Assembly: GCA_002405995.1 (NCBI GenBank)
Contig: DHMW01000122.1
Location: forward strand, 21,791 to 84,518
Direction of reading: 5' to 3'
Length of the DNA stretch: 62,728 bases
Origin: Oscillospiraceae bacterium UBA4632
GTDB taxonomy: Bacteria; Bacillota; Clostridia; Oscillospirales; Oscillospiraceae
The position numbers and the translations under genes were made by a program. Shown here piece by piece: positions 13,008 through 55,338 of this stretch (the stretch's first letter is position 1; every line of letters starts with the position of its first letter). The notes beneath the pieces are model-generated. The model was not told the DNA's origin, did no database searches, and saw nothing but the letters and a program-made list of their open reading frames with translations.

Positions 13008-14378
13008 ATGGCAGAAATCAAGAATATTCCGGTCAGAAAGTTATGGCCGCATCCCGACAACCCGCGCAAAGACGTGGGCGACGTGACCGAGCTGGCTGAG
13101 AGCATCAAAGTCAATGGCGTACTCCAAAACCTCACCGTTGTTCCGCTGATTGGGAAAATCTCAGGCACGTGGGACGGAGAAAGCTATCGCGTCATCATCG
13201 GCCATCGCCGCCTTGCAGCCGCGAAGCTGGCCGGTCTGGAGGAGCTTCCCTGCGTCGTGGTCGAGATGACGGAGCGGGAGCAACTGAGTACCATGCTCAC
13301 GGAGAATATGCAGCGCTCTGATCTGACCGTCTACGAGCAGGCACAGGGCTTTCAGATGATGCTTGACTTGGGCGATACGGTCAAGGATATTGCGCAAAAC
13401 TACGGCTTTTCCACTACTACCGTCCGGAGCCGCGTAAAACTCTTGGAGCTGGACAAAGACAAATTCAAAAAGTCCGAGGAACGCGGCGTCAGCCTGTATG
13501 ACTATATGGAGCTGGACAAGCTGAAAAGCCCGAAACGTAAGAATGAAATGCTCGACTACATCGGCACAGAGAATTTCAAGTACAAGTTGAAACAGGCCAT
13601 TGATGCCGAGGCTGCGGAAGAACGCAAGGCTGCGTGGGTGGAGCAGTTAAGCGCCTTTGCGACGCAGATCACCGACAGGACCGGCTACAAGTTCGTCAGG
13701 AGCTTCTATGTCAGCAACGAGGTCAAGGTGGATCGCCCGGAGGACGCTGATACCGTCGAGTATTTCTTCCTCGTCGAAATGTACTATATCACGCTGATGG
13801 TCAAGGATGGACCAGCCGTCCTCACCCCGGAGGAGGAAGCCAAAAAGCGTGAGGAGCAGATAAAGCAGGAGCGCAAGAATGCGGCTGAACAGGCACTGGC
13901 CGAAGCCACTGCCCGCGCCTATGAGCTTCGCGCCGACTTTGTAGCTACCGTTTCTGCGACCGCTATCAAAAAGCACCTTGCGGACGTTGTGGCGCTGTGG
14001 GCTTACGCCGAATACTGGGACGACACCGGCTGGCTCACCGAAGATGAGATTGCACGGGCTACCGGTGCTGAGCCTCTTGCCGAGGAGGACGATGATAACG
14101 GCGAGGACGATGCCGAATTTACGCTTCAGGCCGTGACCGATGCAATCAGCAAGACGCCTGAAAAGGCGCTGCTGCGAATGGTCTATGCGCGGGTGGGTGA
14201 CCGCAAATCCGAGGGCTATTTCTGTAGCTACTGGAACAGCTACACTATGCGTCACCAGGAAAATGAGCATCTGGACCGCATCTATGCGCTGCTCGTCAAG
14301 TTGGGCTATGAGATGTCCGACGACGAAAAGGCGCTCCAGGACGGCACGCATGAGCTGTTTGGCAAGGAGGCTGAATGA
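13008..14378 (+). CDS. ParB/Spo0J-family protein
   Basis: PHPDNPRK...ELAESIK.NGVLQNL...IIGHRRLAAAK...ENMQRSDL followed by an HTH. Confidence 0.9.
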   Translation: MAEIKNIPVRKLWPHPDNPRKDVGDVTELAESIKVNGVLQNLTVVPLIGKISGTWDGESYRVIIGHRRLAAAKLAGLEELPCVVVEMTEREQLSTMLTENMQRSDLTVYEQAQGFQMMLDLGDTVKDIAQNYGFSTTTVRSRVKLLELDKDKFKKSEERGVSLYDYMELDKLKSPKRKNEMLDYIGTENFKYKLKQAIDAEAAEERKAAWVEQLSAFATQITDRTGYKFVRSFYVSNEVKVDRPEDADTVEYFFLVEMYYITLMVKDGPAVLTPEEEAKKREEQIKQERKNAAEQALAEATARAYELRADFVATVSATAIKKHLADVVALWAYAEYWDDTGWLTEDEIARATGAEPLAEEDDDNGEDDAEFTLQAVTDAISKTPEKALLRMVYARVGDRKSEGYFCSYWNSYTMRHQENEHLDRIYALLVKLGYEMSDDEKALQDGTHELFGKEAE

Positions 14379-19898: not shown

Positions 19899-20500
19899 GG
19901 ACGGTCACGAAACTGCTCTCCGAGCTGAAACGCCCTGAGAGAAACGTGCGTATGCACACCGACAAGCAGCTGACGGAATTCCGGCGCTCGGTCGAAATGT
20001 TCGGCCAGATCCGCCCCATCGTCATTGACGAGAACAACGTCATGCTCGCCGGCAACGGCCTGTATGAAACGCTGCTCTCCATGGGGCGCACTGAAGCGGA
20101 CTGCTACGTGGTCGAAGGCCTGACTGAAAACGAGAAGAAAAAGCTCATGTTGGCCGACAACCGAATTTTCGATTTGGGCGTTGACGACATGAAAGCCTTT
20201 GACGAGTTCATCGCGGAGCTGGGCGACGATCTGGACGTGCCTGGCTTCGACGACGAGTTGCTGCGCTCGCTGGTTGCGAATGAAGCGGAGATTGACGAGA
20301 TGATGTCCTCCTACGGTCTGATCACCGAGGACAAGAAGGAGGAAATCGCCGGTGCGGCTGAAACATACCGCAAGGCAGAAGCCGAACGCGCCGCGCAGCC
20401 GGAGCCTGCTCCTGATGCTGCTGCGGTGAGCGCCGAAGCGGCGCAGCCTGTCGGCAAATATGTCGTCTGCCCGAAGTGCGGTGAAAAGATATGGCTGTAA
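19895..20500 (+). CDS. ParB/Srx-like N-terminal domain protein with terminal Zn ribbon
   Basis: NVRMH...SVEMFGQIRPIVIDE...LAGNG...LADNR; C-terminal CPKCG. Confidence 0.8.
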   Translation: MRTVTKLLSELKRPERNVRMHTDKQLTEFRRSVEMFGQIRPIVIDENNVMLAGNGLYETLLSMGRTEADCYVVEGLTENEKKKLMLADNRIFDLGVDDMKAFDEFIAELGDDLDVPGFDDELLRSLVANEAEIDEMMSSYGLITEDKKEEIAGAAETYRKAEAERAAQPEPAPDAAAVSAEAAQPVGKYVVCPKCGEKIWL

Positions 20501-21651
20501 AGAGAGCGCTCGGCTCCATGAGCTGCGTCGACGCTGCGCGCCTGCGTGTGCGCAATGTGTTCTCCAACGGCGTCAAGGTCTACCTGAGCCTGTCCGGCGG
20601 CAAAGATTCCATCTGCATGGCGGATGTGGTCTATAAGCTGATTCAGCGCGGAGAGATCGACGCCCGGCAGCTCACCTGCCTTTTCATCGACGAGGAAGCG
20701 ATCTATGACTGCTCCATCGACGCAATGAAGTTCTGGCGGAAGAAGTTCCTCATGGCCGGAGCTAAGTTCAACTGGTATTGCCTGCCCTTGAAACAGGTGT
20801 CCTGCTTCAACCAGCTCACCAATGACGAGAGCTGGGTCACATGGGAGCCTGGCAAGGAAAGCGTGTGGGTGCGAAAGCCCCCTCCCTTCGCCATCACGTC
20901 AAGTCCGTACATGACCGAAGCGGGCAGCATGAATTATCAGAGCTTTCTTCCGCGCATCACAAAGGATGGCATTATGCTGACCGGCGTGCGCGCAGCGGAA
21001 TCGGTGCAGCGGCTGCAATATATGAGCTCGCTAAACCTTGGCTTTCAGGGCATCACCGGCACCAACACCATCTATCCGATCTACGATTGGAGCGACAACG
21101 ATGTGTGGATGTATATCCGCGACAACCATCTGGACATCCCAGAAGCCTATTTGTGGATCTATCAGGCAGGCGAAAACCGGCATTCTCTGCGCATCTCCAA
21201 TTTCTTCGCCTGCGATTCTCTGCGTGGTCTGAAGCACGTTGCCGAAACAGACCCCGACCTCTGGCGCAGGATAGAGCTGCGCGAGCCGAACGCATACCTG
21301 ACCCTGCTCTACTGGGACACGGAATGGTACAAGCGCAGCTCGCGCACCCGGCGCAAAAACGAGGCTGCCGACAACCGCGATTATAAAGAGCTGGTCCGGA
21401 AGATGCTCTTTGAGGACTTCGACCGCCATTTCACCAACAGCACTACCCGCCACGTCGCCATTCAGTATCGCCGCTGCTACACCAAGGTGGACGGCGTAGC
21501 CCGGCCGCGCGACTACAAGCAGATGCACGATGCACTTGTCGCGGGCGACCCCAAGCTGCGCACCCTTCGCGCTGTATATCAGAACGTCTATGGCGCCTAC
21601 GCTGAGTACGCCAAGAAGTTCCGCGTGGAAGGGGGTGAAACACATGGCTGA
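20491..21651 (+). CDS. PAPS-reductase-like (PP-loop) protein, IbrA-like
   Basis: SLSGGKDS, FIDEE, GVRAAESVQR, YPIYDWSDNDVW, LRIS motifs. Confidence 0.85.
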   Translation: MAVKRALGSMSCVDAARLRVRNVFSNGVKVYLSLSGGKDSICMADVVYKLIQRGEIDARQLTCLFIDEEAIYDCSIDAMKFWRKKFLMAGAKFNWYCLPLKQVSCFNQLTNDESWVTWEPGKESVWVRKPPPFAITSSPYMTEAGSMNYQSFLPRITKDGIMLTGVRAAESVQRLQYMSSLNLGFQGITGTNTIYPIYDWSDNDVWMYIRDNHLDIPEAYLWIYQAGENRHSLRISNFFACDSLRGLKHVAETDPDLWRRIELREPNAYLTLLYWDTEWYKRSSRTRRKNEAADNRDYKELVRKMLFEDFDRHFTNSTTRHVAIQYRRCYTKVDGVARPRDYKQMHDALVAGDPKLRTLRAVYQNVYGAYAEYAKKFRVEGGETHG

Positions 21652-41861: not shown

Positions 41862-43218
41862 CTACAAGTTCGTATCGACGGACACATCCCCGCTGGTGTC
41901 GGAAATGATTGCGGCATATGAGGCCATCACCGGCGTGACGGTGCAGCCTGCCAGCCCTGAACGGCTGTTTATCCTGTGGGTGGCGGATGTCATCGTCCAG
42001 CTCCGCACGATGGTCAACTACGCAGCCAACCAAAACCTGCCGTCCCGCGCCAGCGGGGCGAACCTTGACGCGCTGGGCGAGCTGTTCTACGACAGCACGC
42101 GCCCCGGCGCGACGCCCGCCACCTGCAAGATGCAGGTGAACATTTCCGAAGCGCAGAGCTCGGCAATCCTGATTCCCAAAGGCGCGCGCTTCACGGATAA
42201 GAACTACACGCTCCTGTGGGACAACACCGAGGACGTGTATGTGGCCGCAGGCGAAACCGGCGCGGAGATCACCCTTGTCTGCGAGACGGCTGGTGCGGTC
42301 GGAAACGGCTATGTGGCCGGACAGATCAATACGCTGGTGGACATCTCCGACGTCCGCTACTACGAATCCTGCGCCAACACCACGGCGACGGACGGCGGCG
42401 CAGAAGCCGCCACCGACGCAGAGTATTATGCGCTGCTGCGGGCGTCGGAGGACGCCTATTCCGTCGCTGGGCCGATGGGGGCTTATGAATACTGGGCCAA
42501 GTCTGTGTCCACCAACATTGCAGACGTGAAAGCCATCCGCCCCACCGAGAAGATCACCAAGACGCTGACGCTCTACGCGGGCCATGCGTTTTACGGCGGC
42601 GAGCACATCAAAAAGGCCACCGTGAAGGTCTACGCGGCGGCGGACAGCGAAACGGCGCTGGTGGAGGGTACGGACTACACGCTCAGCTACGCCGACAACC
42701 TGCTGACCATCACCGCCGAGGAGGGCGGCGCGCTGGCTGACGCGGAATCGCTGGTGCTGGAAGCCGTAGCAGAAAAGGCCGGTCATGTGCATATCTTCGC
42801 GCTGATGAAGGACGGCTCGATTGCGACGCCGACCATCAAGGAACTGATTCTGGCAGCGTGCAGCGACGACACGGTGCGTCCCCTGACGGACTATGTGCAG
42901 GTGCAGGACCCCGGCACGGCCAACTACAACATCGACCTGACCTACTACATCCAGACAGGGACAGAGACGCCAGCGACGGAGATCCAGACCGCCGTTGAAA
43001 AGGCGGTGGACGAGTTCAAGGCATGGCAGAGCGCACGGCTCGGCCGCGACATCAATCCGTCCAAGCTCATTTCGCTGCTGATGCAGACCGGCATCAAGCG
43101 CGTTGTCATCACCGCGCCGGTGTTCACCAAGCTCTCTGACGGCGGGGACGGTACCGCGCCGGAGATCGCGTCCTGCGGCACGGTGCAGATCACGAACGGA
43201 GGGTACGAGGATGAGTAA
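41851..43218 (+). CDS. Baseplate J-like protein
   Basis: ASGANLDALG, GAVGNG, GGAEA, SVAGPMGAYEYWA, VRPLTDYV, LGRDINPS. Confidence 0.92.
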   Translation: MASDYKFVSTDTSPLVSEMIAAYEAITGVTVQPASPERLFILWVADVIVQLRTMVNYAANQNLPSRASGANLDALGELFYDSTRPGATPATCKMQVNISEAQSSAILIPKGARFTDKNYTLLWDNTEDVYVAAGETGAEITLVCETAGAVGNGYVAGQINTLVDISDVRYYESCANTTATDGGAEAATDAEYYALLRASEDAYSVAGPMGAYEYWAKSVSTNIADVKAIRPTEKITKTLTLYAGHAFYGGEHIKKATVKVYAAADSETALVEGTDYTLSYADNLLTITAEEGGALADAESLVLEAVAEKAGHVHIFALMKDGSIATPTIKELILAACSDDTVRPLTDYVQVQDPGTANYNIDLTYYIQTGTETPATEIQTAVEKAVDEFKAWQSARLGRDINPSKLISLLMQTGIKRVVITAPVFTKLSDGGDGTAPEIASCGTVQITNGGYEDE

Positions 43219-43867
43219 CGGCATCACGGCCGAAAACCTCCTCCGTGCGCTGCCGGATGTTTTACAGCAGGACGACAATATGCGCGCGCTGGCGGAAGCG
43301 ATTGCCGGACAGCTCGTGCCGTGCATCGCCGACACCGACGAGCCGCGGATATTCCCGCGCATCGACGAGCTGAGCGAAACGCTGCTGGACACGCTGGCGT
43401 GGGACTTCAAGGTAGACTGGTGGGATTATTCCTACAGCTTGCAGGAGAAGCGGAACACGCTGCGGCAATCGTGGTATGTCCACAAGCACATGGGGACGCC
43501 TGCCGCCGTTATGGCGGCGCTCTCGGCCATCTATCCCAATTCCAAGGTCGAGGAATGGTGGGCCTACGGCGGCGAGCCGTATCACTTCCGCCTGCTGATT
43601 CCTGTGGACGCATCCACGCTGGACGCGAGCAAGCACGCGACCGTGCTTTCCCTCGTGACGTTTTACAAGAATCTGCGCTCAGAGCTGGACAGTGTGGAGT
43701 ATTCCGGCAGCACCAGCAGCCTGACGGTCTACCCGATGGCGGCGCAGTGGGGCACGCATATCGTCAATGCCGGTACGGCCTCCGGTATCTCTGCGGGCGA
43801 CCAGCTGCTTGACGAGCTGAACGATTTCCTCACTGACGAACTCAATGACATTCTGACTGACGGATAA
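43211..43867 (+). CDS. Tail protein I (P2 gpI-like)
   Basis: IDELSE.LLDTLAWDFKVDWW...HKHMGTPAAV...EWW.YGGEPYHF. Confidence 0.88.
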   Translation: MSNGITAENLLRALPDVLQQDDNMRALAEAIAGQLVPCIADTDEPRIFPRIDELSETLLDTLAWDFKVDWWDYSYSLQEKRNTLRQSWYVHKHMGTPAAVMAALSAIYPNSKVEEWWAYGGEPYHFRLLIPVDASTLDASKHATVLSLVTFYKNLRSELDSVEYSGSTSSLTVYPMAAQWGTHIVNAGTASGISAGDQLLDELNDFLTDELNDILTDG

Positions 43868-43881
43868 AGGAAGGTGAAAAT

Positions 43882-44943
43882 ATGTGGGAAGTAGCAACGA
43901 TCACGGATGCCGGTTCTAACCTGCTGGCGAGCTGGATCACCGGCACGGAGCTGCGCATCACGCGCGCTGCCGCCGGTTCCGGCACAGTGGCCGACGCCGA
44001 CCTTTATGCGCTGACGGCGCTCAAGGAGCAGAAGCAGCCCATGAGCATCGTCGGGATGTCGCAGGATGAAAACGGCGTCACGGTGAAGCTCCAGCTGGAA
44101 GCGGCGACGGACGCCTATACGCTCCAGCAGATCGGCGTCTTTGCCAAGGTCGGCAGCGGCGCAGAAGCGCTGCTCGCTGTATTCCAGGATAACGTCGGCA
44201 TCTCCATCCCTGCGGCAAGTACGTCGCAGTCGTTTATCTACAATTTCTTCGCTACCATCGCCGTGAACAACACGGGAACGCTGACGATCGAGATTGACGG
44301 CGGCGCGTCGGTCACGCTGGAAACTGTGCAGGACCTTATCAGCGATAAGCAGGACAAGATCACGGCGACCGGCCTGCTCTACCGCGAGGAGAACGGGACG
44401 ATCCGCGAAGCCATCCCCGGCGAGGACTTTGACGCAGGCGGCGGAGGAGGCGGATTCTACGGCGACTGCGACAGCGCCGCGAGTGACAGCGCGAAGATCG
44501 CGGCATCGGAGGACTACGATTCCGTCGAAGTCGGCGATCTGTGCGTCATCACCTTTGACAACGCGAACACCGCCGTCAACCCCACGCTGAAGGTCGGCGA
44601 CACCGACGAGAAGAAAATCGTGTCCAAAGGCAAGACCACGCTGCTGGCCGAGGATTACTGGGAGGCGGGCGACTACTGCATTTTCGTCTACGACGGCGAG
44701 AATTGGGTGCTTCTGTTCCGCTTCGGTACTTATATCCCCATGAAGCAGAAAGGCACGGCAAAGGGCGTTGCAACGCTGGCGGAGGACGGGAAAGTGCCTA
44801 CCGCGCAGCTGCGCGGCGGCTTCATCATTTCGGCCACGCAGCCCACCGACACCTCGCTGCTGTGGATCGATAGCAAGCAGGTCATGCGCTACTACGACCA
44901 AACGGCAAAGACGTGGAAAACCGTGCTGCCGGTCTGGGGGTGA
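43882..44943 (+). CDS. Tail fibre proximal/attachment protein (gpH-like N-terminus)
   Basis: ITDAG..LLA...[10 protein letters not shown]-terminus directly after gp[21 protein letters not shown] repeat; SATQP....LWID. Confidence 0.7.
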
Positions 44944-44947
44944 TGGC

Positions 44948-46258
44948 ATGGCCTACGGAATGATGACAGCGGCAGAGCTGTTGCAGCTCAAGGCTGCGAT
45001 CAAGGCGGAAATGCTCCGCCGCAATGCGCCGGTCGGCGGGCTTGACGCTTATGGCAGCGATGCCTACGACCTCGCGGCAACGCCGGTCAGCGGCGGCGTG
45101 GTGAAAGCCGACGCCGGACGCAAGACCGTTGACCTGCTGCTCAAAATCAAGGACTACGGCGACCTTGTGAACACAAAGCAGGGCGAGACTGTGCCGGAGA
45201 GCTTTACGGCGAGCCTGATCACCTACGTCAACACGCTTGCGCAGGAACCGATGAACGGCAACAGCAGCTCGTGCCGCGGCGCCTGCACGGGGCTGTGCGT
45301 TGACACCTGCTCGGCGTCTGCGTCCGGCAGCGCCGGTTGCAGCGGATGCGCTTCCGGCTGCTATGGGACGTGCAATGCTTCCTGCGGCAACAGCTGCACG
45401 GGCTGCTCCGGCTGTTCGTCCGGCTGCGGCTCTACCTGCGGCGGATCGTGCGGCGCTGCGTGCGTCGGCGGCTGCTGGTCGAGCTGCACTACCTCCTGCG
45501 GGCGGTCCTGCGCTTCGACCTGCTCAGGGTGCAGCGCGAGTTGTCAGGATTCCTGTGCGCGCGACTGCGACAGCGACTGCTACGCGAACTGCGGAAGCGG
45601 CTGTTCCTCCGGATGCTCCGGATGTTCGTCCGGATGCTCGTCCGGATGCGACGGGTGCAGCAGCCGGTGCGGCGGCGCGTGCATGGGCTCGTGCAGCGGC
45701 TATTGCTACTCCTGCTCCGGCTGCTCTAACGGCTGCACACATGAGTGCAACGCAGGCTGCTCCAATGAGTGCGGCGCGGGCTGCTCCGGCTCCTGCGGCG
45801 GCGCGTGCTCCGGCTGTTCCGGCTGTTCCGGTTCCTGCTCCGGTACCTGCTCCAGCGGATGCAGCCGAAGCTGCTCCGGTGGGTGCTCCGGCGGGTGCAG
45901 CGGAAGCTGCGGCGGATGCGGCGGCGCTTGCAGCTCGTCCTGCTCCGGCGCGTGCGTCTCCGCCTGTTCCGGCGGATGCGCGGGGGCCTGCACTTCCTGC
46001 GGCGGCAACTGCACGAGCAGCTGCTATTCCGCCTGTTCCTCCGGATGCTCCGGATGCTCCGGATGCGGCCAATCGTGCAACGGCGGATGCTATACGAGCT
46101 GCACGGCAACCTGCGGCGGGAACTGCACGGGCGGCTGCGGCACGAGCTGCACGGGATGCGCCGGAAGCTGCGGCAGCGTGTGCAGCCAGAATTGCAATGC
46201 AAATTGCTTCGGTACCTGTTCGACCCAGTGCTTCGGCACTGCTACATCAAAGACCTGA
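44948..46258 (+). CDS. Giant CXXX/CXX-repeat Cys-rich protein, predicted radical-SAM substrate
   Basis: 436 aa from ATG 44948; 108-aa Cys-free N-terminus, then about 83 Cys (hand count) spaced every 3-4 residues among mostly S/G/A/T. Confidence 0.85.
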
Positions 46259-46277
46259 TCTGAAAAGGAGATTGCTT

Positions 46278-46586
46278 ATGAAAACCATTACCAAGACCCT
46301 CGACGCGGAAGTTGTCGCCAATGTGGAGCGCTATTCCTATGAGCTGGAAGCGCGCAAGACCGTCATCGCCGAAATGCTGTCCATGAACATGGACATCAGC
46401 ACGGATGCCTTCGCCAAGTATCAGGCGGAGCTTGTACGCTACAATACCATGTTCGAAGCGGCGAAGAAGGAGATCGAAAAGCAGTACGTCGCGGATGTCC
46501 CCGGCAGTGTGAAGTGGTCGCTGGACTACGCCACCCGCGAGCTGACGATCACCGTGGACGAAGCGGCGGGTGCGGCCCGTGGCTAA
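46278..46586 (+). CDS. CXXX-repeat modification system accessory protein
   Basis: 102 aa, SD AAAAGGAG; helical body and C-terminal KWSLDYATREL, resembling the W.(I/L)D(F/Y).T.E ending I recall for this family. Confidence 0.65.
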   Translation: MKTITKTLDAEVVANVERYSYELEARKTVIAEMLSMNMDISTDAFAKYQAELVRYNTMFEAAKKEIEKQYVADVPGSVKWSLDYATRELTITVDEAAGAARG

Positions 46587-47895
46587 GCGCACGGAACAGT
46601 TTCAGGACTACCTTGCCCGTCTCTTTCCGGAGGCGGGCGGGAAAGCCCGGACGCGCGTCGTGACCTTTCAGGTGACGGACGCCTGCAATCTCCGCTGCAC
46701 CTACTGCTATCAGATCAACAAGGCCGCGCACCGCATGAGCTTTGATGTCGCCAGGCGCTTTGTCGATATGCTGCTGGATGCCGACGAAGAATCCAACCTG
46801 TACCTCAACCCTGAAAACACATCGGGGGTGGTCATCGAATTCATCGGCGGGGAACCTCTGCTGGAAATCGATTTGGTCAATCAGATTACGGACTATTTCC
46901 TGTCTGAAATGTTCCGGCGGAATCACCCGTGGGCGACGCGCTACCGGCTGTCTATCTGCTCCAACGGCGTGCTGTACTTCGACCCGCGCTGGCAGGACTA
47001 TATGCGCCAGCACTGGCGCAACCTTTCGTTCAGTATTTCCGTGGACGGCTGCAAGGAGCTGCACGACAGCTGCCGCGTATTCCCTGACGGCAGCGGCAGC
47101 TATGACTTTGCCATCAAGGGCGTGCGGCATTTCGTAGACGTGCTGGGCGGTGCGATGGGCAGCAAGATGACCCTCGCCCCCGGCAATATCCGGTACACCT
47201 GCAAAGCCATCCGCGGGCTGATCGAGAGCGGGTATCGGGAAATCTTCCTGAACTGCGTCTACGAGGAAGGATGGACGGTCGAGCACGCGAAAATCCTGTA
47301 TGCGGAGCTGAAAAAGGCAGCGGATTATATCATCGACAACGGCTTGTTCGAGGATGTGTATTTGAGCATCTTCGAGCAGGCTTTTTTCCGGCCCAAGGAT
47401 GCAAACGACGTGCAGAACTGGTGCGGCGGCAACGGCGAAATGATCGCCTGCGACTGGAAGGGCGACATCTACCCCTGCATCCGTTACATGGAATCGTCCC
47501 TTGGCGACGACCAGCCGCCGGTGAAGATCGGCAACGTGTACGACGGCGTAATGGTCACGGAGCAGCAGTGCGACTGCGTGAATTGTCTGCGCTCCATCAC
47601 GCGCCGCAGCCAGTCCACGGACGAATGTTTCAACTGCCCCATCGCCGAAGGGTGTTCGTGGTGTACGGCGCTGAACTATCAGCTGTTTGGCACACCGGAT
47701 AAGCGGGCGACCTATATCTGCGTCATGCACAAGGCCCGCGCCCTGGCGAATGCCTATTACTGGAACAAGGGCTTCCGCGCGGCCGGCCGGCCGAAGCGCC
47801 AGAAGATCTATGTGCCGGAGGAATGGGCGCTGGAGATCATCACCCCGGAAGAATGGGCTTACCTGCGCAAGCTGGAAGGCCCGGAGGAGGTTTAG
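46579..47895 (+). CDS. Radical SAM/SPASM peptide maturase, CXXX-repeat-target type
   Basis: VTDACNLRCTYCY (CxxxCxxC), EFIGGEPLLE, SISVDG, SPASM Cys set (WCGG...IYPC...CFNCPIAEGCSWC...IC), C-terminal CVMHKARALANAYYWNK. The start may be 46570. Confidence 0.93.
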   Translation: MAKRTEQFQDYLARLFPEAGGKARTRVVTFQVTDACNLRCTYCYQINKAAHRMSFDVARRFVDMLLDADEESNLYLNPENTSGVVIEFIGGEPLLEIDLVNQITDYFLSEMFRRNHPWATRYRLSICSNGVLYFDPRWQDYMRQHWRNLSFSISVDGCKELHDSCRVFPDGSGSYDFAIKGVRHFVDVLGGAMGSKMTLAPGNIRYTCKAIRGLIESGYREIFLNCVYEEGWTVEHAKILYAELKKAADYIIDNGLFEDVYLSIFEQAFFRPKDANDVQNWCGGNGEMIACDWKGDIYPCIRYMESSLGDDQPPVKIGNVYDGVMVTEQQCDCVNCLRSITRRSQSTDECFNCPIAEGCSWCTALNYQLFGTPDKRATYICVMHKARALANAYYWNKGFRAAGRPKRQKIYVPEEWALEIITPEEWAYLRKLEGPEEV

Positions 47896-47898
47896 CGT

Positions 47899-50800
47899 AT
47901 GGCTACCAAAATCACAACCAAGAAAATTTCCGAGATCGCCGCGGACGACCTTCATGTGCTGATCACGCAGACGGAGGACGACCTCGTTTCCCTGCGGCGT
48001 ATGCCGGCGCATGTGCTGTTCGACAAGTTCGGCGTGAACGGCCTGAGCTATACCGACAGCAAGCTCCAGCTCATGTGCGGCAGTGTCCCCGTTGGCGCGC
48101 CGGTCACGATTCAGGGCGGCAGCGGCAGCGGCGACTTCGGCAGCACCATGCGTCTGAGCAACAAAATGGAATCGCGCACGTTCACAGTCATGGACACCGC
48201 GCCCACCGTGGAGATCGCCTACAACGTGACCAGCGTGGACACGGAGACGGAGGAAGCCACTGGCAATATCTCCGTGGAATGGTACGTCGGCAGCAGCCGC
48301 GTATACGCCGGTACGGTGGCGCAGGGCGACAACGTCTATGATGTTAAGAAACACCTCGTCAGCGGTGCATACAACACCGTGCGGCTTGTTGCAACGGACA
48401 CCTACGGCAATTCCAAGTCGATGACATGGACGATCACGGTCGCGGCCTACGGGCTGACGTGGAATCTCTCCGACTTCGGTATCTACAACGGCGAATCCCT
48501 GACGCTGCGCCTTGTGCCGACCGGCACGGGTGAAAAGGTCGTGAAGGTCAAGCTGGATGATACCGTCATCAGCACACAGACCGTATCGACCACCGGCCGC
48601 GCCGTTGCCGTCACCGTGGCTGCGCAGACGCACGGCGCGCACCGCCTGACCGCGTGGATGGAGGTTGACCTTGACGGCCAGACCGTCACCACGGAAACGC
48701 TGACCCACGTCGGCGTGTGGGTCGATTCCGAAAGCGAGACGCCTATTGTGGCGTTCCTGCAAACGTCGGTGTCGGTGCCGGTATACGGCACGGCGGAGGT
48801 CAAGTGGATCGCCTATGACCCCGCCAGCGAATCCGCAACCGTCGTGCGCTCCGTCGTCGGGACGGACATTTCCGCATCCCTGACGGTAGACCGCACGCCC
48901 CAGACGTGGGGCTACCGCCCGACCTCGACCGGCACGCAGACGCTCCGCGTGGTCTGCGGTACGGCCTACGCCACCTGCACCTGCACGGCCACGGCGCTGG
49001 ACTATGACATCGAGCCGGTCACGCGCTCGCTCTCCATGAGCGTAGACCCCAGCGGCCACACCAACGCCGAGGCAAGCCGCACGAGCTTTGGCTACTCGGA
49101 CGGCGGCGGCACGAATCACCCCTTCACCTTCAGCAGCAATTTTGACTGGGTGAACGGCGGCTTCAAGGTCGATGATGAGGGCGTCACCGCGTTCGTCATC
49201 AAGCGCGGCACGTCGATTACCTGCGACCGCTCGCTGTTTGCAGACGACGCCAAAACGAACGGCAAGGAGATCAAGATGATCTTCGCCGTCAAGGAGTGCC
49301 GCAGCGGCACCGCCGAGATTGCCAGCTGCAAACCCGGCAGCATCGGCCTTTCCATGCAGGCCCATCAGGTCACGCTTTCCTCGGAAGCGCAGTCGATCAC
49401 GGCGCTGTACTGCGAGGACAAGAAGATCGAGATGGACGTCAACATCGAATCGTCCAACGAAAACCGCTTCGCTATGATCTGGCTGGAGGGCATCCCGTCC
49501 CGCGTGACCGCATACGGCAGCACCGACAACTGGACACAGGCGACGCCCGCGATGCTGACCATCGGCTCGGCGGACTGCGATGTGTGGCTCTACCGCTTCA
49601 AGCTCTATGACAGCTCCCTGACGCGCTATGAGATCCTGGACAACTTCATCGCGGACTGCGCCAATCCCACGGAAATGGTAGACCGCTATGAGCGCAACAA
49701 CATCTACAACACGGACGGCACTATCAACAGGCAGAAGCTCTCTGCCGTGTCGCCGGAGCTGCGCGTGATCCATATCGTTGCCGACCGCATGACGACCTCC
49801 AAATCGGACAACGTGAGCTGCTCTGTGGAGCTGCTCTACGGCAGCGGCGGTGCAGCGCGGCAGTTCACCGGTTTGGGCGTGACGATGAAGGCACAGGGTA
49901 CGTCCTCGCTGGAATACCTGCTGGCCGCGCTCAACCTCGACCTCGACTTTTCCAAGGCGACGTGGACGAACGGCAACGGCGAGTTCATTTCCGGCTATGC
50001 CATGACGGAGAACAGCATTCCCGTGGACTATCTCAACGTCAAGCTGAACGTGGCATCGAGTGAGAACGCGAACAATGTCTGCGCGGTGGACGAGTACAAC
50101 ACCTTCCAGCCGAATCCCTGTGCCGCCCGCGAAGCCAATCCCAAGGTGCGCGACACGGTGGAGGGGCATCCCTGTGCGGTGTTCTTCACCAACAATGCCA
50201 CGGCCGCGATCTCTGTCGGCGCGCGCACGGTGCAGCCCGGCGAGACGATCATGTACGGCGTGGGCGACCTGAACAACAGCAAGAAAAACCTTGCCGTGTT
50301 CGGGCAGGACAACAGCGTTTATTCCGAGCAGTGCTGCATTGAGATCATGAACAATAACAATCCGCAGTGCCTGTTCAAATCCGACGACCTGACCGGCGAG
50401 ACGTGGGACGGCGGCAACTTTGAGTTCCGCTTCCCCAAGAATCCAACCGATGCCATGAAGTCCCGCTGGCAGCAGCTCCTTTCGTGGGTCGTGTCCACCG
50501 ACCGCACAGCCGCGACCGGCACAACGCTGGAGCAGCCCGTGACCTATGACGGCGTGGCGTATGCCGCCGACACGGTGGCCTACCGCGCAGCCAAGTTCAA
50601 GGCCGAGGTCTACAACTACTTCCACGAGGGCGACCTTGAATATCACTACCTGTTCACCGAGCGGCATCTGCTGGTGGATAACCGCGCGAAAAACTGCTTT
50701 GTCAGCTATGAGTATTTCAACGACGTGGAGGGGTACCGCTGGACATTCCGCTGCGACTACGACAACGATACGTTCAGCGGCAACGATAACTCCGGCGGCA

Positions 50801-53214
50801 TGACCTTCACCTATGGCCTTGAGGACGTTGATTCTGTCGGCGCGGCCAAGGTGTTCAACGCTTCGGATTCTGTACTGTGGTGCAACGTCCGCGACCTGCT
50901 GTCCCCGCAGCTGGTGGCGATGTATAAGGACCGCGAATCCGCCGGTGCATGGAGCGCCGACCGCATCTGCGCGAAGTGGAAAGCGCATCAGAGCGCGCGC
51001 CCCGAAGCGCTGATGGCCGAGGACACATGGGGCAAATATCTTTCCCCGTATATCAACAAGGGCGAAACGCGCTTCCTGAACATCGCCTACGGCACAAAGG
51101 AGGATCAGCTCCGCCAGTTCGAGACTGACCAGGAGGCGTATATCGCTTCCAAGTATGGCGGCAGCGTATCCACCGCCGACCGTATCTCTCTGCGTACCAA
51201 TGCGCCGGACGAGTGGGCGGGCGTGGAGCCGAGCGGCGATATTTCCGATATCGTCCCGTTTTCCGACGTCTACATCACGGTCAAGTACGGCAATGCCGGC
51301 ACGCAGCGGATCCGCGCAAAGGCAGGGCAGTCCTACGACGTGACGCTGCCGGAGGGCGCGTCGCTTAACGACCTTGAAACCTACATCTATTCCGCGTCCC
51401 GCCTGTCCTCTATCGGCTCGTTGGCCGCGCTGTATTCCAAACTCGCAGAGCTGGCGTCGGCCACGCGGCTGAAACAGTTCATCGGGGGCAGCGGCGAGGT
51501 CGGTTATGCCAACGGCTCCATGACCTCTATCTCGTTCGGACAGAACCTCATGATGGAGAAGATCGACCTGCGCGGCACACCGCAGCTCACACAGGCGCTT
51601 GACCTGTCTGCGCTGACCGCGCTCAAGGAGCTGTACACGGAAGGCTCCGGTGTGACCGGCGTAACCTTCGCCCGCAACTCGCCGGTGAAGATTGCCAAGC
51701 TCGGCAGCATCCGCACGCTGGTTGCCCGCGACCTTACCAACGTGGAAACCTTCTCCGTCGGCAATGCGCTCCAGTCCGTGTGGATCGAGGGCTGCTCCGC
51801 CGCGGTCGATACGCAATCCATGCTGATGGCTGCGACCGGCCTCACCCGCGGCCGCGTGCTGGGCGTCAACTGGTCTCTCAACAACGCCGATCTGCTGCTC
51901 CGGCTGGCATCGCTCGCCGGTCTTGACGCCAACGGCGACAATACCACGCAGTTCGTGCTGACCGGCGCATGCTATGTCTATATGCTTTCGCAGGACGAGC
52001 TGGACACGATCAATACGGCGTTCCCTGAGCTGACCGTCACCTATAACACGCTGCTGAGCACCTTCACCGTCACGTTCAAGAACTACGACGGCACGGTGCT
52101 GAACACCCAGCGCGTCCGCCAGTACGGCGACGCGAAGAATCCTGTGACCGAGGGGCTGATTGCCACGCCCACCAAGCCGCCCACCGTGGACAAGGTGTTC
52201 ACCTTTGCGGCGTGGGACAAGGCGATCACCTACATCACGCAGGATTTGGAGGTAACGGCGACCTACGCCGAAGCCGCGAGAATGTATACGGTCAAGTGGT
52301 GGAACGGCCTGACGCTGCTCCAGACCTCGACCGTGGAGGTCTACGACAACGGCGAGTACACCGGCGACATCCCCTATATCTCCGACAACGACATCTTCAC
52401 GGGATGGAGCATCGCAACGACGAATGTGCAGGCGGATATCAACACCTACGCGCAGTTTGAATCGGCCAGCATTCCGGCAGCCAAGGCTACGGATTACGAC
52501 TACCTGTATTCCGACGACCCCGACGATGACAGCGCCTACACGCTGGGCGAGCTCGTGGGTATCATCAACTCCGGACAGGCAAGCTCGTGGTTCGAGATCG
52601 GCGACAAGATCAAGATGGTCACGCCGACCAAGGCGTTTGCCGATACGTCCATCATCCTCGGCTTCACGGCCGTCAACCATTTCAAGCTGGCGGACGGCAG
52701 CGGCATGGCAAAAGCGTTCTTCCTGATGATCGGCGCGATGACCGCTCCCTATAAGCACCACACCACCAACATTAACACCGGCGGCTATCCGCAATCCGAC
52801 ATCCACACATATCTGGAGACGGTCGTATTCCCAAATCTGCCGCTGCACTGGCAGTCCCTCGCAAAGCTCGTGCAGCGCAGGTCGTCCGTGGGCGATATGT
52901 CGCCGGAGATCGTGACGACGAATTGTCACCTGACGATTCCCGTGTATGCGGAGTGCTTCCCCGATGGTGCGACTGCCGTTCCGTACAAGAACGAGGTCGA
53001 TCCGGACGCTGACAACATAACCTTTTCCTGCTTCACCGACAACAACAGTCGTATCCGCAAGACCTTCAACGGCGAGGGTTCTGCTGTGAACTGGTGGTTG
53101 GGCTCTCCTGATCCCACTTCCGTTGCGTACTGGCGCATTGTGGGCAACGGCGGCGCCGCGGGCAGCTACCACGCGAGCGGCAGCTCTTCCCTCGTGTGGG
53201 GCTTAAATTTTTAA
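47899..53214 (+). CDS. Large DGR target protein, likely receptor-binding/adhesin
   Basis: 1771 aa: beta-rich N-terminus, CotH-kinase-like motifs, LRR-like stretch, Flg_new-like repeats, and a C-terminal CLec-type end (NWWLGSP...WRIV) carrying the VR. Confidence 0.85.
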   Translation: MATKITTKKISEIAADDLHVLITQTEDDLVSLRRMPAHVLFDKFGVNGLSYTDSKLQLMCGSVPVGAPVTIQGGSGSGDFGSTMRLSNKMESRTFTVMDTAPTVEIAYNVTSVDTETEEATGNISVEWYVGSSRVYAGTVAQGDNVYDVKKHLVSGAYNTVRLVATDTYGNSKSMTWTITVAAYGLTWNLSDFGIYNGESLTLRLVPTGTGEKVVKVKLDDTVISTQTVSTTGRAVAVTVAAQTHGAHRLTAWMEVDLDGQTVTTETLTHVGVWVDSESETPIVAFLQTSVSVPVYGTAEVKWIAYDPASESATVVRSVVGTDISASLTVDRTPQTWGYRPTSTGTQTLRVVCGTAYATCTCTATALDYDIEPVTRSLSMSVDPSGHTNAEASRTSFGYSDGGGTNHPFTFSSNFDWVNGGFKVDDEGVTAFVIKRGTSITCDRSLFADDAKTNGKEIKMIFAVKECRSGTAEIASCKPGSIGLSMQAHQVTLSSEAQSITALYCEDKKIEMDVNIESSNENRFAMIWLEGIPSRVTAYGSTDNWTQATPAMLTIGSADCDVWLYRFKLYDSSLTRYEILDNFIADCANPTEMVDRYERNNIYNTDGTINRQKLSAVSPELRVIHIVADRMTTSKSDNVSCSVELLYGSGGAARQFTGLGVTMKAQGTSSLEYLLAALNLDLDFSKATWTNGNGEFISGYAMTENSIPVDYLNVKLNVASSENANNVCAVDEYNTFQPNPCAAREANPKVRDTVEGHPCAVFFTNNATAAISVGARTVQPGETIMYGVGDLNNSKKNLAVFGQDNSVYSEQCCIEIMNNNNPQCLFKSDDLTGETWDGGNFEFRFPKNPTDAMKSRWQQLLSWVVSTDRTAATGTTLEQPVTYDGVAYAADTVAYRAAKFKAEVYNYFHEGDLEYHYLFTERHLLVDNRAKNCFVSYEYFNDVEGYRWTFRCDYDNDTFSGNDNSGGMTFTYGLEDVDSVGAAKVFNASDSVLWCNVRDLLSPQLVAMYKDRESAGAWSADRICAKWKAHQSARPEALMAEDTWGKYLSPYINKGETRFLNIAYGTKEDQLRQFETDQEAYIASKYGGSVSTADRISLRTNAPDEWAGVEPSGDISDIVPFSDVYITVKYGNAGTQRIRAKAGQSYDVTLPEGASLNDLETYIYSASRLSSIGSLAALYSKLAELASATRLKQFIGGSGEVGYANGSMTSISFGQNLMMEKIDLRGTPQLTQALDLSALTALKELYTEGSGVTGVTFARNSPVKIAKLGSIRTLVARDLTNVETFSVGNALQSVWIEGCSAAVDTQSMLMAATGLTRGRVLGVNWSLNNADLLLRLASLAGLDANGDNTTQFVLTGACYVYMLSQDELDTINTAFPELTVTYNTLLSTFTVTFKNYDGTVLNTQRVRQYGDAKNPVTEGLIATPTKPPTVDKVFTFAAWDKAITYITQDLEVTATYAEAARMYTVKWWNGLTLLQTSTVEVYDNGEYTGDIPYISDNDIFTGWSIATTNVQADINTYAQFESASIPAAKATDYDYLYSDDPDDDSAYTLGELVGIINSGQASSWFEIGDKIKMVTPTKAFADTSIILGFTAVNHFKLADGSGMAKAFFLMIGAMTAPYKHHTTNINTGGYPQSDIHTYLETVVFPNLPLHWQSLAKLVQRRSSVGDMSPEIVTTNCHLTIPVYAECFPDGATAVPYKNEVDPDADNITFSCFTDNNSRIRKTFNGEGSAVNWWLGSPDPTSVAYWRIVGNGGAAGSYHASGSSSLVWGLNF
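53076..53203 (+). repeat. DGR variable repeat (VR)
   Basis: 128 bp, ungapped match to 53843-53970 with 17 substitutions, all opposite TR adenines. Confidence 0.97.
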
Positions 53215-53228
53215 TCCATGCTCTCACT

Positions 53229-53256
53229 ATCTGCGCCCCCTTTGTGGGGCGCAGAT
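53229..53256 (+). promoter_or_regulatory. DGR target-recognition hairpin downstream of VR/IMH
   Basis: ATCTGCGCCCC-CTTTGT-GGGGCGCAGAT, 11-bp perfect stem 25 bp after VR; further small hairpins at 53264-53280 and 53291-53304. Confidence 0.75.
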
Positions 53257-53413
53257 GGAGCACCCCGCGCTGTGCGCGGGCAAATACTATGCCGCGTAAG
53301 CGGCCGCGCGATTTTTATTTTTTAAAAATAACGTATTCCGTTATAATCTCCCCTTTTTCCTTTCGGCAGGTCCGGCGGTGCTACAATAACACGGCCTGAA
53401 AGGGGTGGGGTAT

Positions 53414-53818
53414 ATGTCTGTTATCCGCAGTGCTCGTTCGGTGTCGGAGGTGCAATTTCTGCACACGGCACGCGAGCTGCAAATCTACACGGTCCAGAAG
53501 TGTGTCGGCTTTCCGAAGCGGTACACCTTCTATGTCAGCCAGCCGCTTGCGGCGGTTGCTACACGGATCTATGAGGATGTGAAGCGCGGCAACAGCATTT
53601 ATCCCGCCAATCAGCATGAAGTGCAGCTCCGCAGGGACTACTTTCTGCATGCGCTGGCTGAGCTTCAGAATCTGATCTCTCAGGTGGAAGTCGCCTACGA
53701 GCTGTTCCGGTTTGACGCCAACATCATGGAGCACTGGATGGAGCTGGTCGATACCGAAATGAAGCTCGTCAAGGCGCTGCTGAAAAGCGACAAATCCCGC
53801 TATAAGGATTTGCCATAG
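53414..53818 (+). CDS. avd: DGR accessory variability determinant (Avd-like four-helix bundle)
   Basis: 134 aa helical protein between target and TR; FPKRYTF, NSIYP, R..Y...A, W..L...E.KL. Confidence 0.85.
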   Translation: MSVIRSARSVSEVQFLHTARELQIYTVQKCVGFPKRYTFYVSQPLAAVATRIYEDVKRGNSIYPANQHEVQLRRDYFLHALAELQNLISQVEVAYELFRFDANIMEHWMELVDTEMKLVKALLKSDKSRYKDLP

Positions 53819-53842
53819 GTCATGCGCTGAATGAGATCGTTG

Positions 53843-53970
53843 GGGTTCTGCTGTGAACTGGTGGTTGGGCTCTCCTGATCCCACTTCCGTTACGAACTGG
53901 CGCAATGTGAACAACAACGGCAACGCGAACAGCAACAACGCGAGCAACAGCAATTCCCTCGTGTGGGGCT
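53843..53970 (+). repeat. DGR template repeat (TR)
   Basis: AAC-rich non-coding copy of VR between avd and RT. Confidence 0.97.
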
Positions 53971-54186
53971 CCTCTCCGTGCAGACCGAGTAACCTTCAAG
54001 GCGAAAGCAGACATCGAAGGAGATAAGGAGCGCATGACCGTCCGAAAGGTGAATATACGCCCTGATGCGTCCGGGCGGACGCTTCTTGCATGGCGCGGAT
54101 TGCAGGTCATTCCGCGTTTCATGCCCGGTGACGCTATGCCGCTACTGCAACCTGCCGACAGCGGTACGGGGTGGAGGAGAGTTTTT
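53971..54186 (+). ncRNA. Structured spacer 3' of TR (part of the DGR template RNA)
   Basis: Stretch between TR and the RT start with stems such as GCATGGCGCGGA/TTCCGCGTTTCATGC and CGCCC/GGGCG; function inferred from position. Confidence 0.5.
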
Positions 54187-55338
54187 ATGACCAGTGCAGA
54201 ACGGAGGGAGGGCCGCTACCAACGCCGGGTGGCCCTCCGTGCAGAAAAGAAAGCGCGAAGCTGCGCGCAGTATGACGACTACGACGCGGTATTTTCTTTC
54301 GCGCATCTTTATCAGGCGTACCGAAAGTGCAGGCAGAATGTGGCCTGGAAGGCCAGCGTGCAGAAGTACATCGCCACGGCCCCGCTGAATGTCTATCAGA
54401 CATACAGGCGACTGATGGCGGGGACGTACAAAAGCCCCGGCTTTTTCGAGTTCGACGTGTTCGAGCGCGGGAAAAAGCGCCACATCCGCAGCACCATCAT
54501 TGGCGAGCGCGTCGTGCAGCGCTGCCTATGCGACAACGCGCTTGTGCCGATGCTCTACCGCACCTTCATCCACGACAACGGGGCCAGCATGACGGACAAG
54601 GGCTATTCTTTCGCCGTCCGGCGCATGGGGCAGCATCTCCACGAGCATTACCGCAAGCACGGGCAGAAGGGATATATCCTCCTGTTCGACTTCTCCAAGT
54701 TCTTTGACCGCGTTTCCCACGCGGTCATTGAGCGCATCATCCGGAGGAACTTCACCGACCGGCGGCTGATCCGCATCATCGGCCACTTCGTTCGGATGTT
54801 CGGCCCGGTGGGTCTGGGCCTCGGCAGCCAGATCAGTCAGGTGCTCGCGCTGGCGAGTGCCAATGAGCTGGACCATGCCATCAAGGAGCTGCTGCGCATC
54901 CACGCCAGCGCGCGTTATATGGACGACGGATATCTGATTCACGAATCCAAGGAGTATTTGCAGCGGTGCCTTTCGCTGGTTCAGGAGGTCTGCGACAAGC
55001 TGGAAATCACCCTGAATCCGAAAAAGACGCAGATCGTGAAACTGGCTCACGGCTTCACATGGCTGCAAATCCGTGTGTTCCTGACGCCGGCCGGCAAGAT
55101 CGTCAAGAAGATGCCCCACAAGGGTATCACCAAAATGCGGCGCAAGCTGAAAAAGCTGCGCCGGAAGCTGGACGCGGGCGAGATCACCCGCGAGGATGTC
55201 TGGACATCGTGGCAGAGCTGGCGCAGCCATGCGGAGCGCTTCGATGCCTGGCACACGCTACAATCCATGGGGCAGCTATACGATGAGCTGTTCGTGTTTA
55301 CGGAGGACTTCTATTATGATTTACCTGAAAGTGCTTGA
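54187..55338 (+). CDS. DGR reverse transcriptase
   Basis: ATG after GGAGGAG; ERGKKRHI, ERVVQR, LLFDFSKFFD, GLGLGSQISQ, RYMDD, LNPKKTQI. Confidence 0.96.
   Translation: MTSAERREGRYQRRVALRAEKKARSCAQYDDYDAVFSFAHLYQAYRKCRQNVAWKASVQKYIATAPLNVYQTYRRLMAGTYKSPGFFEFDVFERGKKRHIRSTIIGERVVQRCLCDNALVPMLYRTFIHDNGASMTDKGYSFAVRRMGQHLHEHYRKHGQKGYILLFDFSKFFDRVSHAVIERIIRRNFTDRRLIRIIGHFVRMFGPVGLGLGSQISQVLALASANELDHAIKELLRIHASARYMDDGYLIHESKEYLQRCLSLVQEVCDKLEITLNPKKTQIVKLAHGFTWLQIRVFLTPAGKIVKKMPHKGITKMRRKLKKLRRKLDAGEITREDVWTSWQSWRSHAERFDAWHTLQSMGQLYDELFVFTEDFYYDLPESA

Follow-up and report, generated by a model that had tools for sequence, protein, structure and literature searches.

A stretch of 62,728 nucleotides (nt), hereafter the window, was analysed from contig DHMW01000122.1 (positions 21,791 to 84,518, forward strand) of the GenBank assembly GCA_002405995.1 of Oscillospiraceae bacterium UBA4632. 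The window carries a myovirus-type prophage, whose late operon contains a cassette of three co-directional and translationally coupled genes (44948-47895). These genes encode a cysteine-rich protein, called here the ladder protein (P0001), a small accessory protein, or helper (P0002), and a radical S-adenosylmethionine (SAM) enzyme with a SPASM domain, called the maturase (P0003). The cassette is located between a gene encoding a tail-fibre-type protein of 353 amino acids (aa) and a gene for a 1771-aa protein diversified by a diversity-generating retroelement (DGR). From the 353-aa gene through the three cassette genes to the 1771-aa gene, the successive gaps are 4, 19, -17 (an overlap) and 3 nt; the ladder gene, upstream, ends 311 nt before the start of the maturase gene, and a ribosome-binding site containing GGAG is found upstream of the helper gene. 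A consensus scan of the region 43000-54500, compared with shuffled sequences, detected no sigma-70-like promoter (2.9 +/- 1.8 expected) and eight terminator-like sites (8.7 expected by chance). None of these sites stands at a gene end within the cassette, and the earliest that does so lies at 53293-53310, after the 1771-aa gene. A 17-pair stem-loop followed by a T-run is present inside the maturase coding sequence (47341-47382, plus strand); given that terminator-like sites occur at the expected frequency, this match is probably fortuitous. An earlier examination of this DNA from its letters alone, referred to below as the sequence-only reading, had described three tightly coupled genes with gaps of 4 nt, 19 nt, an overlap and 3 nt, and no obvious promoter or terminator; the gene limits and the consensus scan confirm this description.

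In the ladder protein, a cysteine-free N-terminal domain (N-domain) of 108 residues is followed, from residue 109 onwards, by an array of cysteine repeats referred to as the ladder. The distance between successive cysteines is 4 in 66 of the 82 intervals, 3 in 15 and 10 in a single one. The ladder is composed almost solely of C, S, G, A, T and N, and charged residues are scarce in it: of its 329 residues, 6 are D, 2 are E and 6 are K or R. In an alignment of 42 homologous sequences (A2), C109, C113, G115, C117 and C121 of the ladder start CRGACTGLC are invariant, and the later repeats vary freely. Across 43 homologues the number of ladder cysteines ranges from 11 to 105, with a spacing of 4 in 1397 intervals and of 3 in 571. 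These proteins usually end with a tail of 2-14 residues, often of the form F/Y-G-S/T-A. Because the same architecture is found in hundreds of homologues, the ladder open reading frame (ORF) cannot be attributed to chance. Scanning the whole protein with hmmscan returned no NCBIfam or Pfam family, the Pfam set used being one that lacks PF27846. The best match of the target model TIGR04114, which has 18 positions and a cut-off of 20 bits, coincides with the ladder start (45269-45322) and scores just below that cut-off (18.3 bits, E 0.011); the Syntroph_Cxxx target model TIGR04117 reaches 12.5 bits for a cut-off of 50 and covers the repeat part only. Among the PHROG families the ladder protein matches phrog_6085 (3.5e-20), of unknown function. 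The nearest clusters of the ESM Atlas are named 'Modification target Cys-rich repeat domain-containing protein' and carry PF27846 on 13-47% of their members; 54-100% of the members of known phylum are viral.

The length of the ladder is variable even over short evolutionary distances. Its DNA is made of diverged short repeats with periods of 9, 12, 21, 24 and 36 nt. In a close relative whose enzyme is 99% identical (locus L008, 6427-7689; loci of the survey described below are designated by the letter L), the ladder is 16 residues shorter than in the window (44948-46258), an in-frame difference of four CXXX units, X being any residue; a near-identical prophage (L009) has the full-length ladder. 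The number of repeats therefore changes between close relatives. At 19 loci sharing the gene order of the L049 type (L044 7062-7631, L032, L035, L047 and others), a non-Cys domain of about 136-192 aa is fused after the ladder. At other loci of this type, the same C-terminal region constitutes a separate ORF of 166-168 aa, which may reflect a genuine division of the gene, a shift of the reading frame or a mistake in the assembly of the repeats. For the domain of about 190 aa from L044, neither PHROG, Pfam, PDB nor the Atlas gave an assignment. Some homologues are organized differently: P0029 (435 aa) has two ladders separated by a linker of about 90 aa, and several ladder genes are found together at L016 and L021, the former having five, one of them encoding 968 aa.

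Profile comparisons indicate that the N-domain is an unannotated protein family, almost always found at the N-terminus. A profile search covering 1.84 billion representative proteins returned 729 homologues at E <=1e-3, of which 460 at E <=1e-10. Of the 150 best homologues, 146 have the domain beginning no later than residue 32; the lengths of these 150 proteins span 104-522 aa, the 436-aa protein of the window being at the long end. In alignment A2, R24, R25, G30, G49 and K59 are near-invariant. The AlphaFold2 (AF2) model, of moderate confidence (predicted local distance difference test, pLDDT, 73.9; predicted template modelling score, pTM, 0.68), suggests a small helical domain with three main helices. 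No hydrophobic segment was detected in the N-domain (maximum of the 19-residue Kyte-Doolittle average, KD19, 0.81), and neither the ladder protein nor the helper has a signal-peptide-like or membrane segment. A search of BFVD with the N-domain retrieved family members only, and a tblastn search of 50,697 deposited phage genome records gave zero matches. Complex prediction of the N-domain with the ladder start (A2) and the helper (alignment A3, see below) returned a score of 0.01 and a mark of 0.32, which is neutral on binding. A second N-domain subfamily, with a ladder start reading ...SDCKSGCTGTCYTGC, is found at L116, L121-L124 and L001. There the ladder gene is separated from the gene of the helper or of the enzyme by an extra conserved gene of about 175-215 aa; the copy of this extra gene at L001 (9110-9718) has no Pfam match. 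Two individual homologues have additional parts: P0186 (611 aa) has an insertion of about 200 aa within the N-domain, with motifs that we take to be reminiscent of lectin-like phage fibre domains, and P0080 (327 aa) has a further N-terminal domain of 136 aa.

The maturase belongs to the TIGR04115 family and retains intact sets of catalytic and SPASM cysteines. It aligns over the entire model (positions 1-359 of 359) with 457.1 bits (E 5.2e-137) for a cut-off of 350, and with 457.5 bits in the search of the whole genome. The CX3CX2C motif (C39, C43 and C46) is kept in all 45 aligned relatives, and the SPASM cysteines C285, C303, C353, C356, C362, C365 and C384 in 44-45 of them. The next-best family is that of the ranthipeptide maturase PapB (NF047865; 7.2e-49, 166.8 bits, residues 30-377), followed by models of Cys-rich peptide, SCIFF and other thioether-forming maturases. 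Partial matches extend to anaerobic sulfatase maturases (TIGR03942, 2.7e-15; NF010308, 1.3e-9) and many other SPASM families. As the alignments begin only at positions 83-95 of the HxsB, SCIFF and CcpM models, the N-terminal domain of these related maturases is absent from P0003. The corresponding PHROG family, phrog_1802 (1e-65), is labelled merely 'radical SAM domain-containing protein'. In deposited phage genomes, the top matches listed are two unannotated faecal contigs (37-38% identity), followed by jumbo enterobacterial phages at about 25% identity; Campylobacter phages are also counted among the organisms matched, outside the 40 matches listed. Among L016, L117, L085 and L018/L096, the enzyme ORF is over-long in some relatives (653, 569 and 558 aa), and others have two radical SAM genes in tandem.

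The helper is modelled with high confidence (AF2 pLDDT 93.3) as a beta-alpha-alpha-beta-beta protein, in which strands 2-7, 77-83 and 88-94 form a three-stranded sheet that packs against a long helical hairpin. F45 and W80 are near-invariant among the 25 sequences of alignment A3, and the C-terminal end reads ...VKWSLDYATRELTITV.... No NCBIfam or Pfam family was returned by hmmscan, and the accessory-protein model TIGR04116 (cut-off 50 bits) matches neither P0002 nor any of the 25 aligned homologues at E <=0.01. Fold searches retrieved generic helical hairpins only (best Foldseek E 0.13, best VIA Z 7.2), and no RiPP (ribosomally made, post-translationally modified peptide) recognition element (RRE) or PqqD was listed. 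Because the N-terminal domain of related maturases is missing from the enzyme, whose gene overlaps that of the helper, we infer that the helper could act in trans as a substrate-presenting partner, by analogy with PqqD and PqqE. The description of the three proteins given by the sequence-only reading holds at the level of detail: the 436-aa protein with a 108-aa Cys-free N-terminus has exactly 83 cysteines where about 83 had been announced, the 102-aa protein ends as described, and the radical SAM/SPASM enzyme is intact.

The conservation of this organization was investigated among relatives of the maturase. The collection comprised 148 relatives in IMG/VR, for which 80 loci were kept, and 47 in species-representative genomes (46 loci). 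ORFs were called crudely in these 126 loci and the enzymes were grouped at 90% identity into 57 clusters. A Cys-rich ORF, defined by at least 12 Cys and more than 8% Cys within 6 kb of the enzyme gene, is present in 50 of the 57 clusters. Among the seven others, 2-5 genes were called ahead of the enzyme gene at L126, L104, L110 and L010, and L132 carries no more than a partial enzyme gene, at the end of the contig. Most clusters have the ladder gene upstream of the enzyme gene; in six clusters it lies downstream. Immediately before the enzyme gene, a homologue of P0002 is detected by phmmer in 26 of the 57 clusters, and further clusters carry the C-terminal helper motif W/F-x-L/I-D/N-F/Y. Of the 47 clusters that have an upstream ORF of at least 100 aa, 26 have this ORF ending 300-370 nt before the first ladder cysteine, a spacing which implies that a gene with an N-domain of about 105-115 aa begins right behind the upstream ORF.

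The upstream proteins are for the most part related to tail fibres. After the removal of six cases in which the enzyme itself was the upstream ORF, 41 proteins were compared with PHROG; the 25 most-hit families comprise 15 tail fibre, minor tail or tail families, one virion structural family and nine unnamed ones. By iterative search, the C-terminal 70 aa or so of the 353-aa fibre were recognized in 15 of the 41 proteins, often near their C-terminus, and its N-terminal 165 aa in 7. As a rule, the cassette closes the tail-fibre block and the lysis genes come next. The window differs in this respect, its cassette being enclosed between two fibre-type genes. The same gene order as in the window is found in a divergent low-GC faecal phage contig (L001), whose enzyme is 38% identical: a fibre gene is followed there by the gene of a ladder protein of 193 aa, the N-domain of which is homologous, then by an ORF of 202 aa, the gene of a 94-aa helper, that of the enzyme and further ORFs.

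Within the same order, true matches to TIGR04115 were found in 2 of 401 genomes, that of the window included, a sporadic occurrence that fits the expectation for prophage cargo. By their record titles, carriers belong to the Oscillospiraceae, the Lachnospiraceae, the Eubacteriales and other mostly gut anaerobes, and include the cultured Neglectibacter timonensis SN17 and Eubacterium pyruvativorans i6. Contigs of L089, L110, L112 and L127/L130 are labelled as Treponemataceae, Methanobrevibacter, Slackia or 'Mollicutes' metagenome-assembled genomes; these labels could reflect a real host breadth or phage contigs binned into the wrong genomes. The genome of the window (75.9% complete) has no match to Peptidase_C39, and none of its 45 ABC_tran matches is located on the contig of the window.

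The prophage surrounding the cassette has a conventional order of genes. Terminase, portal and major head genes are followed by those of the sheath (33033), the tube (34468) and the tape measure (35638), then by genes for a gpD-like protein and for baseplate components of the V, W, J and I type. In the 353-aa protein, residues 1-160 match the tail fibre families phrog_7037 (3.4e-22) and phrog_27381 (7.8e-19), and residues 282-310 the minor tail family phrog_1446. The 1771-aa protein matches phrog_14959 and phrog_24896, two families devoid of functional label, and its residues 1620-1755 resemble DUF6273 (E 1e-4, under the cut-off). The DGR associated with it is complete: besides the reverse transcriptase, it comprises a pair of repeats that differ only at template adenines (17 differences out of 17). 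The cassette and the DGR-diversified protein are thereby combined in one operon. The neighbourhood announced by the sequence-only reading is thus established, both the position between a fibre gene and a DGR target and the insertion of the cassette among virion morphogenesis genes. A 137-aa ORF between the variable and template repeats (53405-53818) has no Pfam match, and an amidase gene (57085) lies downstream of the reverse transcriptase gene. In the early region, genes for a ParB-N/HTH_ParB protein and a PAPS-reductase-domain protein (13008-14378 and 20491-21651) hint at a DNA-modification or partition function.

Table 1. Features of the cassette and of its prophage surroundings, in positions of the window
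Feature	Position	Strand	Remarks
Ladder protein gene P0001	44948..46258	+	436 aa
N-domain of the ladder protein (residues 1-108), free of Cys	44948..45271	+	alignment A2, AF2
Cysteine ladder, residues 109-428	45272..46231	+	83 Cys, CXXX x66, CXX x15
Non-Cys tail FGTATSKT and stop codon	46232..46258	+	8 residues
Accessory protein (helper) gene P0002	46278..46586	+	102 aa
Radical SAM/SPASM maturase gene P0003	46570..47895	+	441 aa, GTG start
Tail-fibre-type protein gene	43882..44943	+	353 aa, directly upstream of the ladder gene
DGR-diversified protein gene	47899..53214	+	1771 aa, after the maturase gene
DGR variable repeat	53076-53203		128 nt, in the 3' end of the 1771-aa gene
DGR template repeat	53843-53970	+	128 nt, 767 nt beyond the variable repeat
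Reverse transcriptase gene	54034-55338	+	RVT_1 7.5e-17
Serine recombinase gene	791-2464	-	with helix-turn-helix (HTH) regulators at the window ends

On the basis of these observations, we propose, with a probability of about one half, that the enzyme cross-links the cysteines of the ladder and that the product is a virion appendage on the tail-fibre apparatus. The three cassette genes would be expressed late, as a phage module. According to this model, P0003, probably aided by P0002, would modify the ladder cysteines in the anaerobic cytoplasm of the host. The most likely chemistry would be the formation of thioether cross-links between cysteine sulfur and carbon atoms, as catalysed by related SPASM maturases. 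The modified ladder protein would retain its 108-aa N-domain and, instead of being excised and exported as a peptide, would be built into, or docked onto, the tail-fibre apparatus as a redox-insensitive and protease-resistant stalk or appendage. This proposal is favoured because ladder, helper and enzyme are co-inherited, because the tight operon coupling to fibre genes recurs across unrelated phage backbones, because the folded N-domain is conserved, fixed in size and always N-terminal, and because the shaft changes in length by whole repeat units and occasionally acquires a C-terminal domain. It is plausible that thioethers, unlike disulfides, are unaffected by the reducing gut lumen, and that the anaerobic cytoplasm provides what radical SAM enzymes need. 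A more specific version, somewhat short of an even chance, is that a processive maturase makes a thioether-stapled rod of adjustable length, (CXXX)n with up to about 100 Cys, anchored by the N-domain to the tail-fibre apparatus.

Several results weigh against this proposal. The ladder protein has no tail-fibre PHROG match, phrog_6085 being its sole PHROG family. Its N-domain is unrelated to the upstream 353-aa fibre (hhalign probability 0.7%), and it has no convincing counterpart in the PDB, either by fold (Foldseek best E 3.1; VIA-align wide best Z 4.7) or by sequence profile, where nothing is found below E 0.45. A fusion to a fibre domain was sought in 41 homologues of 229-611 aa, in which PF27846 is the sole Pfam domain (17 of 41), and no fusion to long fibre proteins scored among proteins of 764-2180 aa, this latter result being weak evidence. 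In the largest cluster (L049, 36 loci) the upstream protein is labelled head or virion structural, not tail fibre. On the downstream side (90 proteins), the 25 most-hit families comprise 13 of endolysin, amidase, holin or hemolysin type, three of tail and nine unnamed; the usual site is therefore the junction between tail and lysis genes, which is also a place for cargo genes. The 166.8 bits obtained by P0003 on the PapB model remain under the cut-off of 340, so that the enzyme is related to this family, not a member of it, and thioether chemistry is proposed by analogy. Long leader-like domains also exist in ordinary RiPPs, such as the NHLP/Nif11 leaders. The synteny survey suggested by the sequence-only reading speaks in favour of that reading: a ladder accompanies the enzyme in 50 of 57 clusters and the upstream genes are mostly of tail-fibre type. 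In relatives, however, the downstream genes are mostly lysis genes. The central proposal of that reading, the cross-linking of a structural tail component by the phage, is partly supported: it finds support in the synteny next to fibre genes and is weakened by the usual location at the tail/lysis junction.

The position at this boundary, common for cargo, also counts in favour of a rival explanation, in which the ladder protein would be a RiPP-like product foreign to the virion and the N-domain an unusually long leader. The modified ladder, either intact or after cleavage by a protease of the host, would then be released at lysis or from lysogens, and outside the particle it could for example kill microbes, chelate metals or condition neighbouring cells. 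P0003 is indeed a member of a curated family of peptide maturases, such an enzyme and a 101-aa helper are paired at L137 with two CXXX peptides of about 75 aa, and a release by phage lysis would dispense with an exporter. We consider this explanation quite unlikely, however, since the cassette has no promoter-like site of its own and is tightly coupled between two fibre-type genes, and since the module recurs directly after fibre-type genes in unrelated phage backbones. The statement of the sequence-only reading that neither exporter nor peptidase is visible is borne out by the lack of Peptidase_C39 in the genome and of ABC_tran on the contig. Moreover, the N-domain is conserved, folded and of fixed length in 729 representative proteins, and a defined bioactive peptide would not be expected to show a ten-fold range of ladder lengths or, as some relatives do, an added C-terminal domain.

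The absence of a tail-fibre PHROG match would also be accounted for by a morphogenetic or intracellular factor that helps the fibre to fold or assemble, or buffers metals or redox in late infection, without entering the virion. In P2-type phages the fibre gene is immediately followed by genes for fibre assembly, and the cassette occupies the same position. A chaperone would hardly need 11-105 modified cysteines, a ten-fold variation in length and an extra C-terminal domain, and the upstream fibres are very diverse when the N-domain is conserved; such a role is therefore improbable. A low but appreciable probability is given to a different chemistry on the same substrate, for example oxidation to formylglycine, the reaction of anaerobic sulfatase maturases, epimerisation or C-methylation, or to a ladder that mainly binds metals or Fe-S clusters. 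The partial matches of P0003 to the anaerobic sulfatase maturase and to many SPASM models leave room for it, as does the fact that no characterised TIGR04115 member was found in the literature searched. On the other side, PapB is the best non-self match, ahead of the maturases of Cys-rich peptides, of SCIFF and of other thioether products, and Cys-rich repeat substrates are, according to the family descriptions, typical of the thioether-maturase group.

Should the ladder protein prove to be a modified component of the virion, the radical chemistry of RiPPs would extend from small secreted peptides to large viral structural proteins. It would then represent a novel means by which host-recognition organelles are stabilised in the gut, a reducing and protease-rich environment, as well as a redox-proof substitute for disulfides and the first enzymatically cross-linked virion appendage. 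Chemists would also gain an enzyme that may act on dozens of positions in a single polypeptide. The family is large and resides mostly in phages of gut Clostridia, and it bears for this reason on the phage-host biology of the microbiome. The existence of cultured carriers makes the hypothesis directly testable.

The closest known counterpart of the cassette is the CXXX-repeat system, which is defined by bioinformatics alone through TIGR04115, TIGR04114, TIGR04116 and PF27846. The likeness resides in the maturase, which passes TIGR04115, in the CXXX periodicity of the putative substrate, in the ladder start of P0001, which gives the best TIGR04114 match, and in the gene for a helper of about 100 aa directly before the enzyme gene, as at L137. 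This bacterial locus has the classical form, with an enzyme, a 101-aa helper and two short-leader peptides of about 75 aa carrying about a dozen CXXX units. The cassette differs from it by a 436-aa target with a folded 108-aa N-domain, by its belonging to a phage tail operon and by its helper, which fails TIGR04116 both directly and via its 25 relatives, alignment A3 having no profile similarity to the L137 helper (hhalign probability 1.2%). TIGR04116 is itself rare, with a single occurrence in 401 genomes of the phylum, that of L137 at a sub-threshold 37.9 bits. The trio recognized by the sequence-only reading is consequently retained for the enzyme, but the ladder, at 18.3 bits, stays under the TIGR04114 cut-off of 20, and TIGR04116 is unmatched. 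The literature search found no experimental paper on a CXXX-repeat radical SAM system, and no paper describing the cassette or its phage tail context in the main texts that it covered, supplements being outside its scope. The one text match for 'TIGR04115' was a pig-microbiome study, unrelated in the part accessible, and a term search of the accessible text of the review PMC8326336 found neither phage nor CXXX. The statement of the sequence-only reading that no characterised example is known agrees with this; the target family is nonetheless curated in databases (PF27846), and the enzyme family is curated yet uncharacterised.

Among the SPASM thioether maturases, which include the SCIFF maturase and CcpM, the PapB/PapA system producing freyrasin is the best non-self relative of the maturase. 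The cysteine motif of PapB is CX3D. Given the few Asp and Glu residues of the ladder, an acceptor of this type is mostly absent from it. According to the accessible text of PMC12373016, PapB acts on repeated Cys motifs, in which it links the thiols of the cysteines to carbon atoms. The putative substrate of the cassette is five to ten times longer than that of PapB and has neither protease nor exporter. This also distinguishes the cassette from the usual RiPP cluster, since neither a leader peptidase nor a dedicated exporter is found near the ladder gene. The helper recalls PqqE/PqqD and RRE systems: P0003 starts about 85-95 residues later than maturases with an N-terminal domain, and a separate protein of about 100 aa is encoded upstream with overlapping stop and start. 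P0002 differs from these by its beta-alpha-alpha-beta-beta model and by having no RRE or PqqD match, so that the analogy would be a functional one.

On the structural side, the ladder protein resembles ordinary phage tail fibres in its layout, with a putative N-terminal anchor, a repetitive shaft and an optional C-terminal domain, but it differs from them by the absence of a match to a tail-fibre family. The idea of a covalently reinforced particle component is also familiar from the isopeptide chainmail of the HK97 capsid. In HK97 the cross-linking is autocatalytic and takes place on the capsid, whereas in the cassette the cross-linking would require a dedicated radical SAM enzyme and concern a protein of the tail module.

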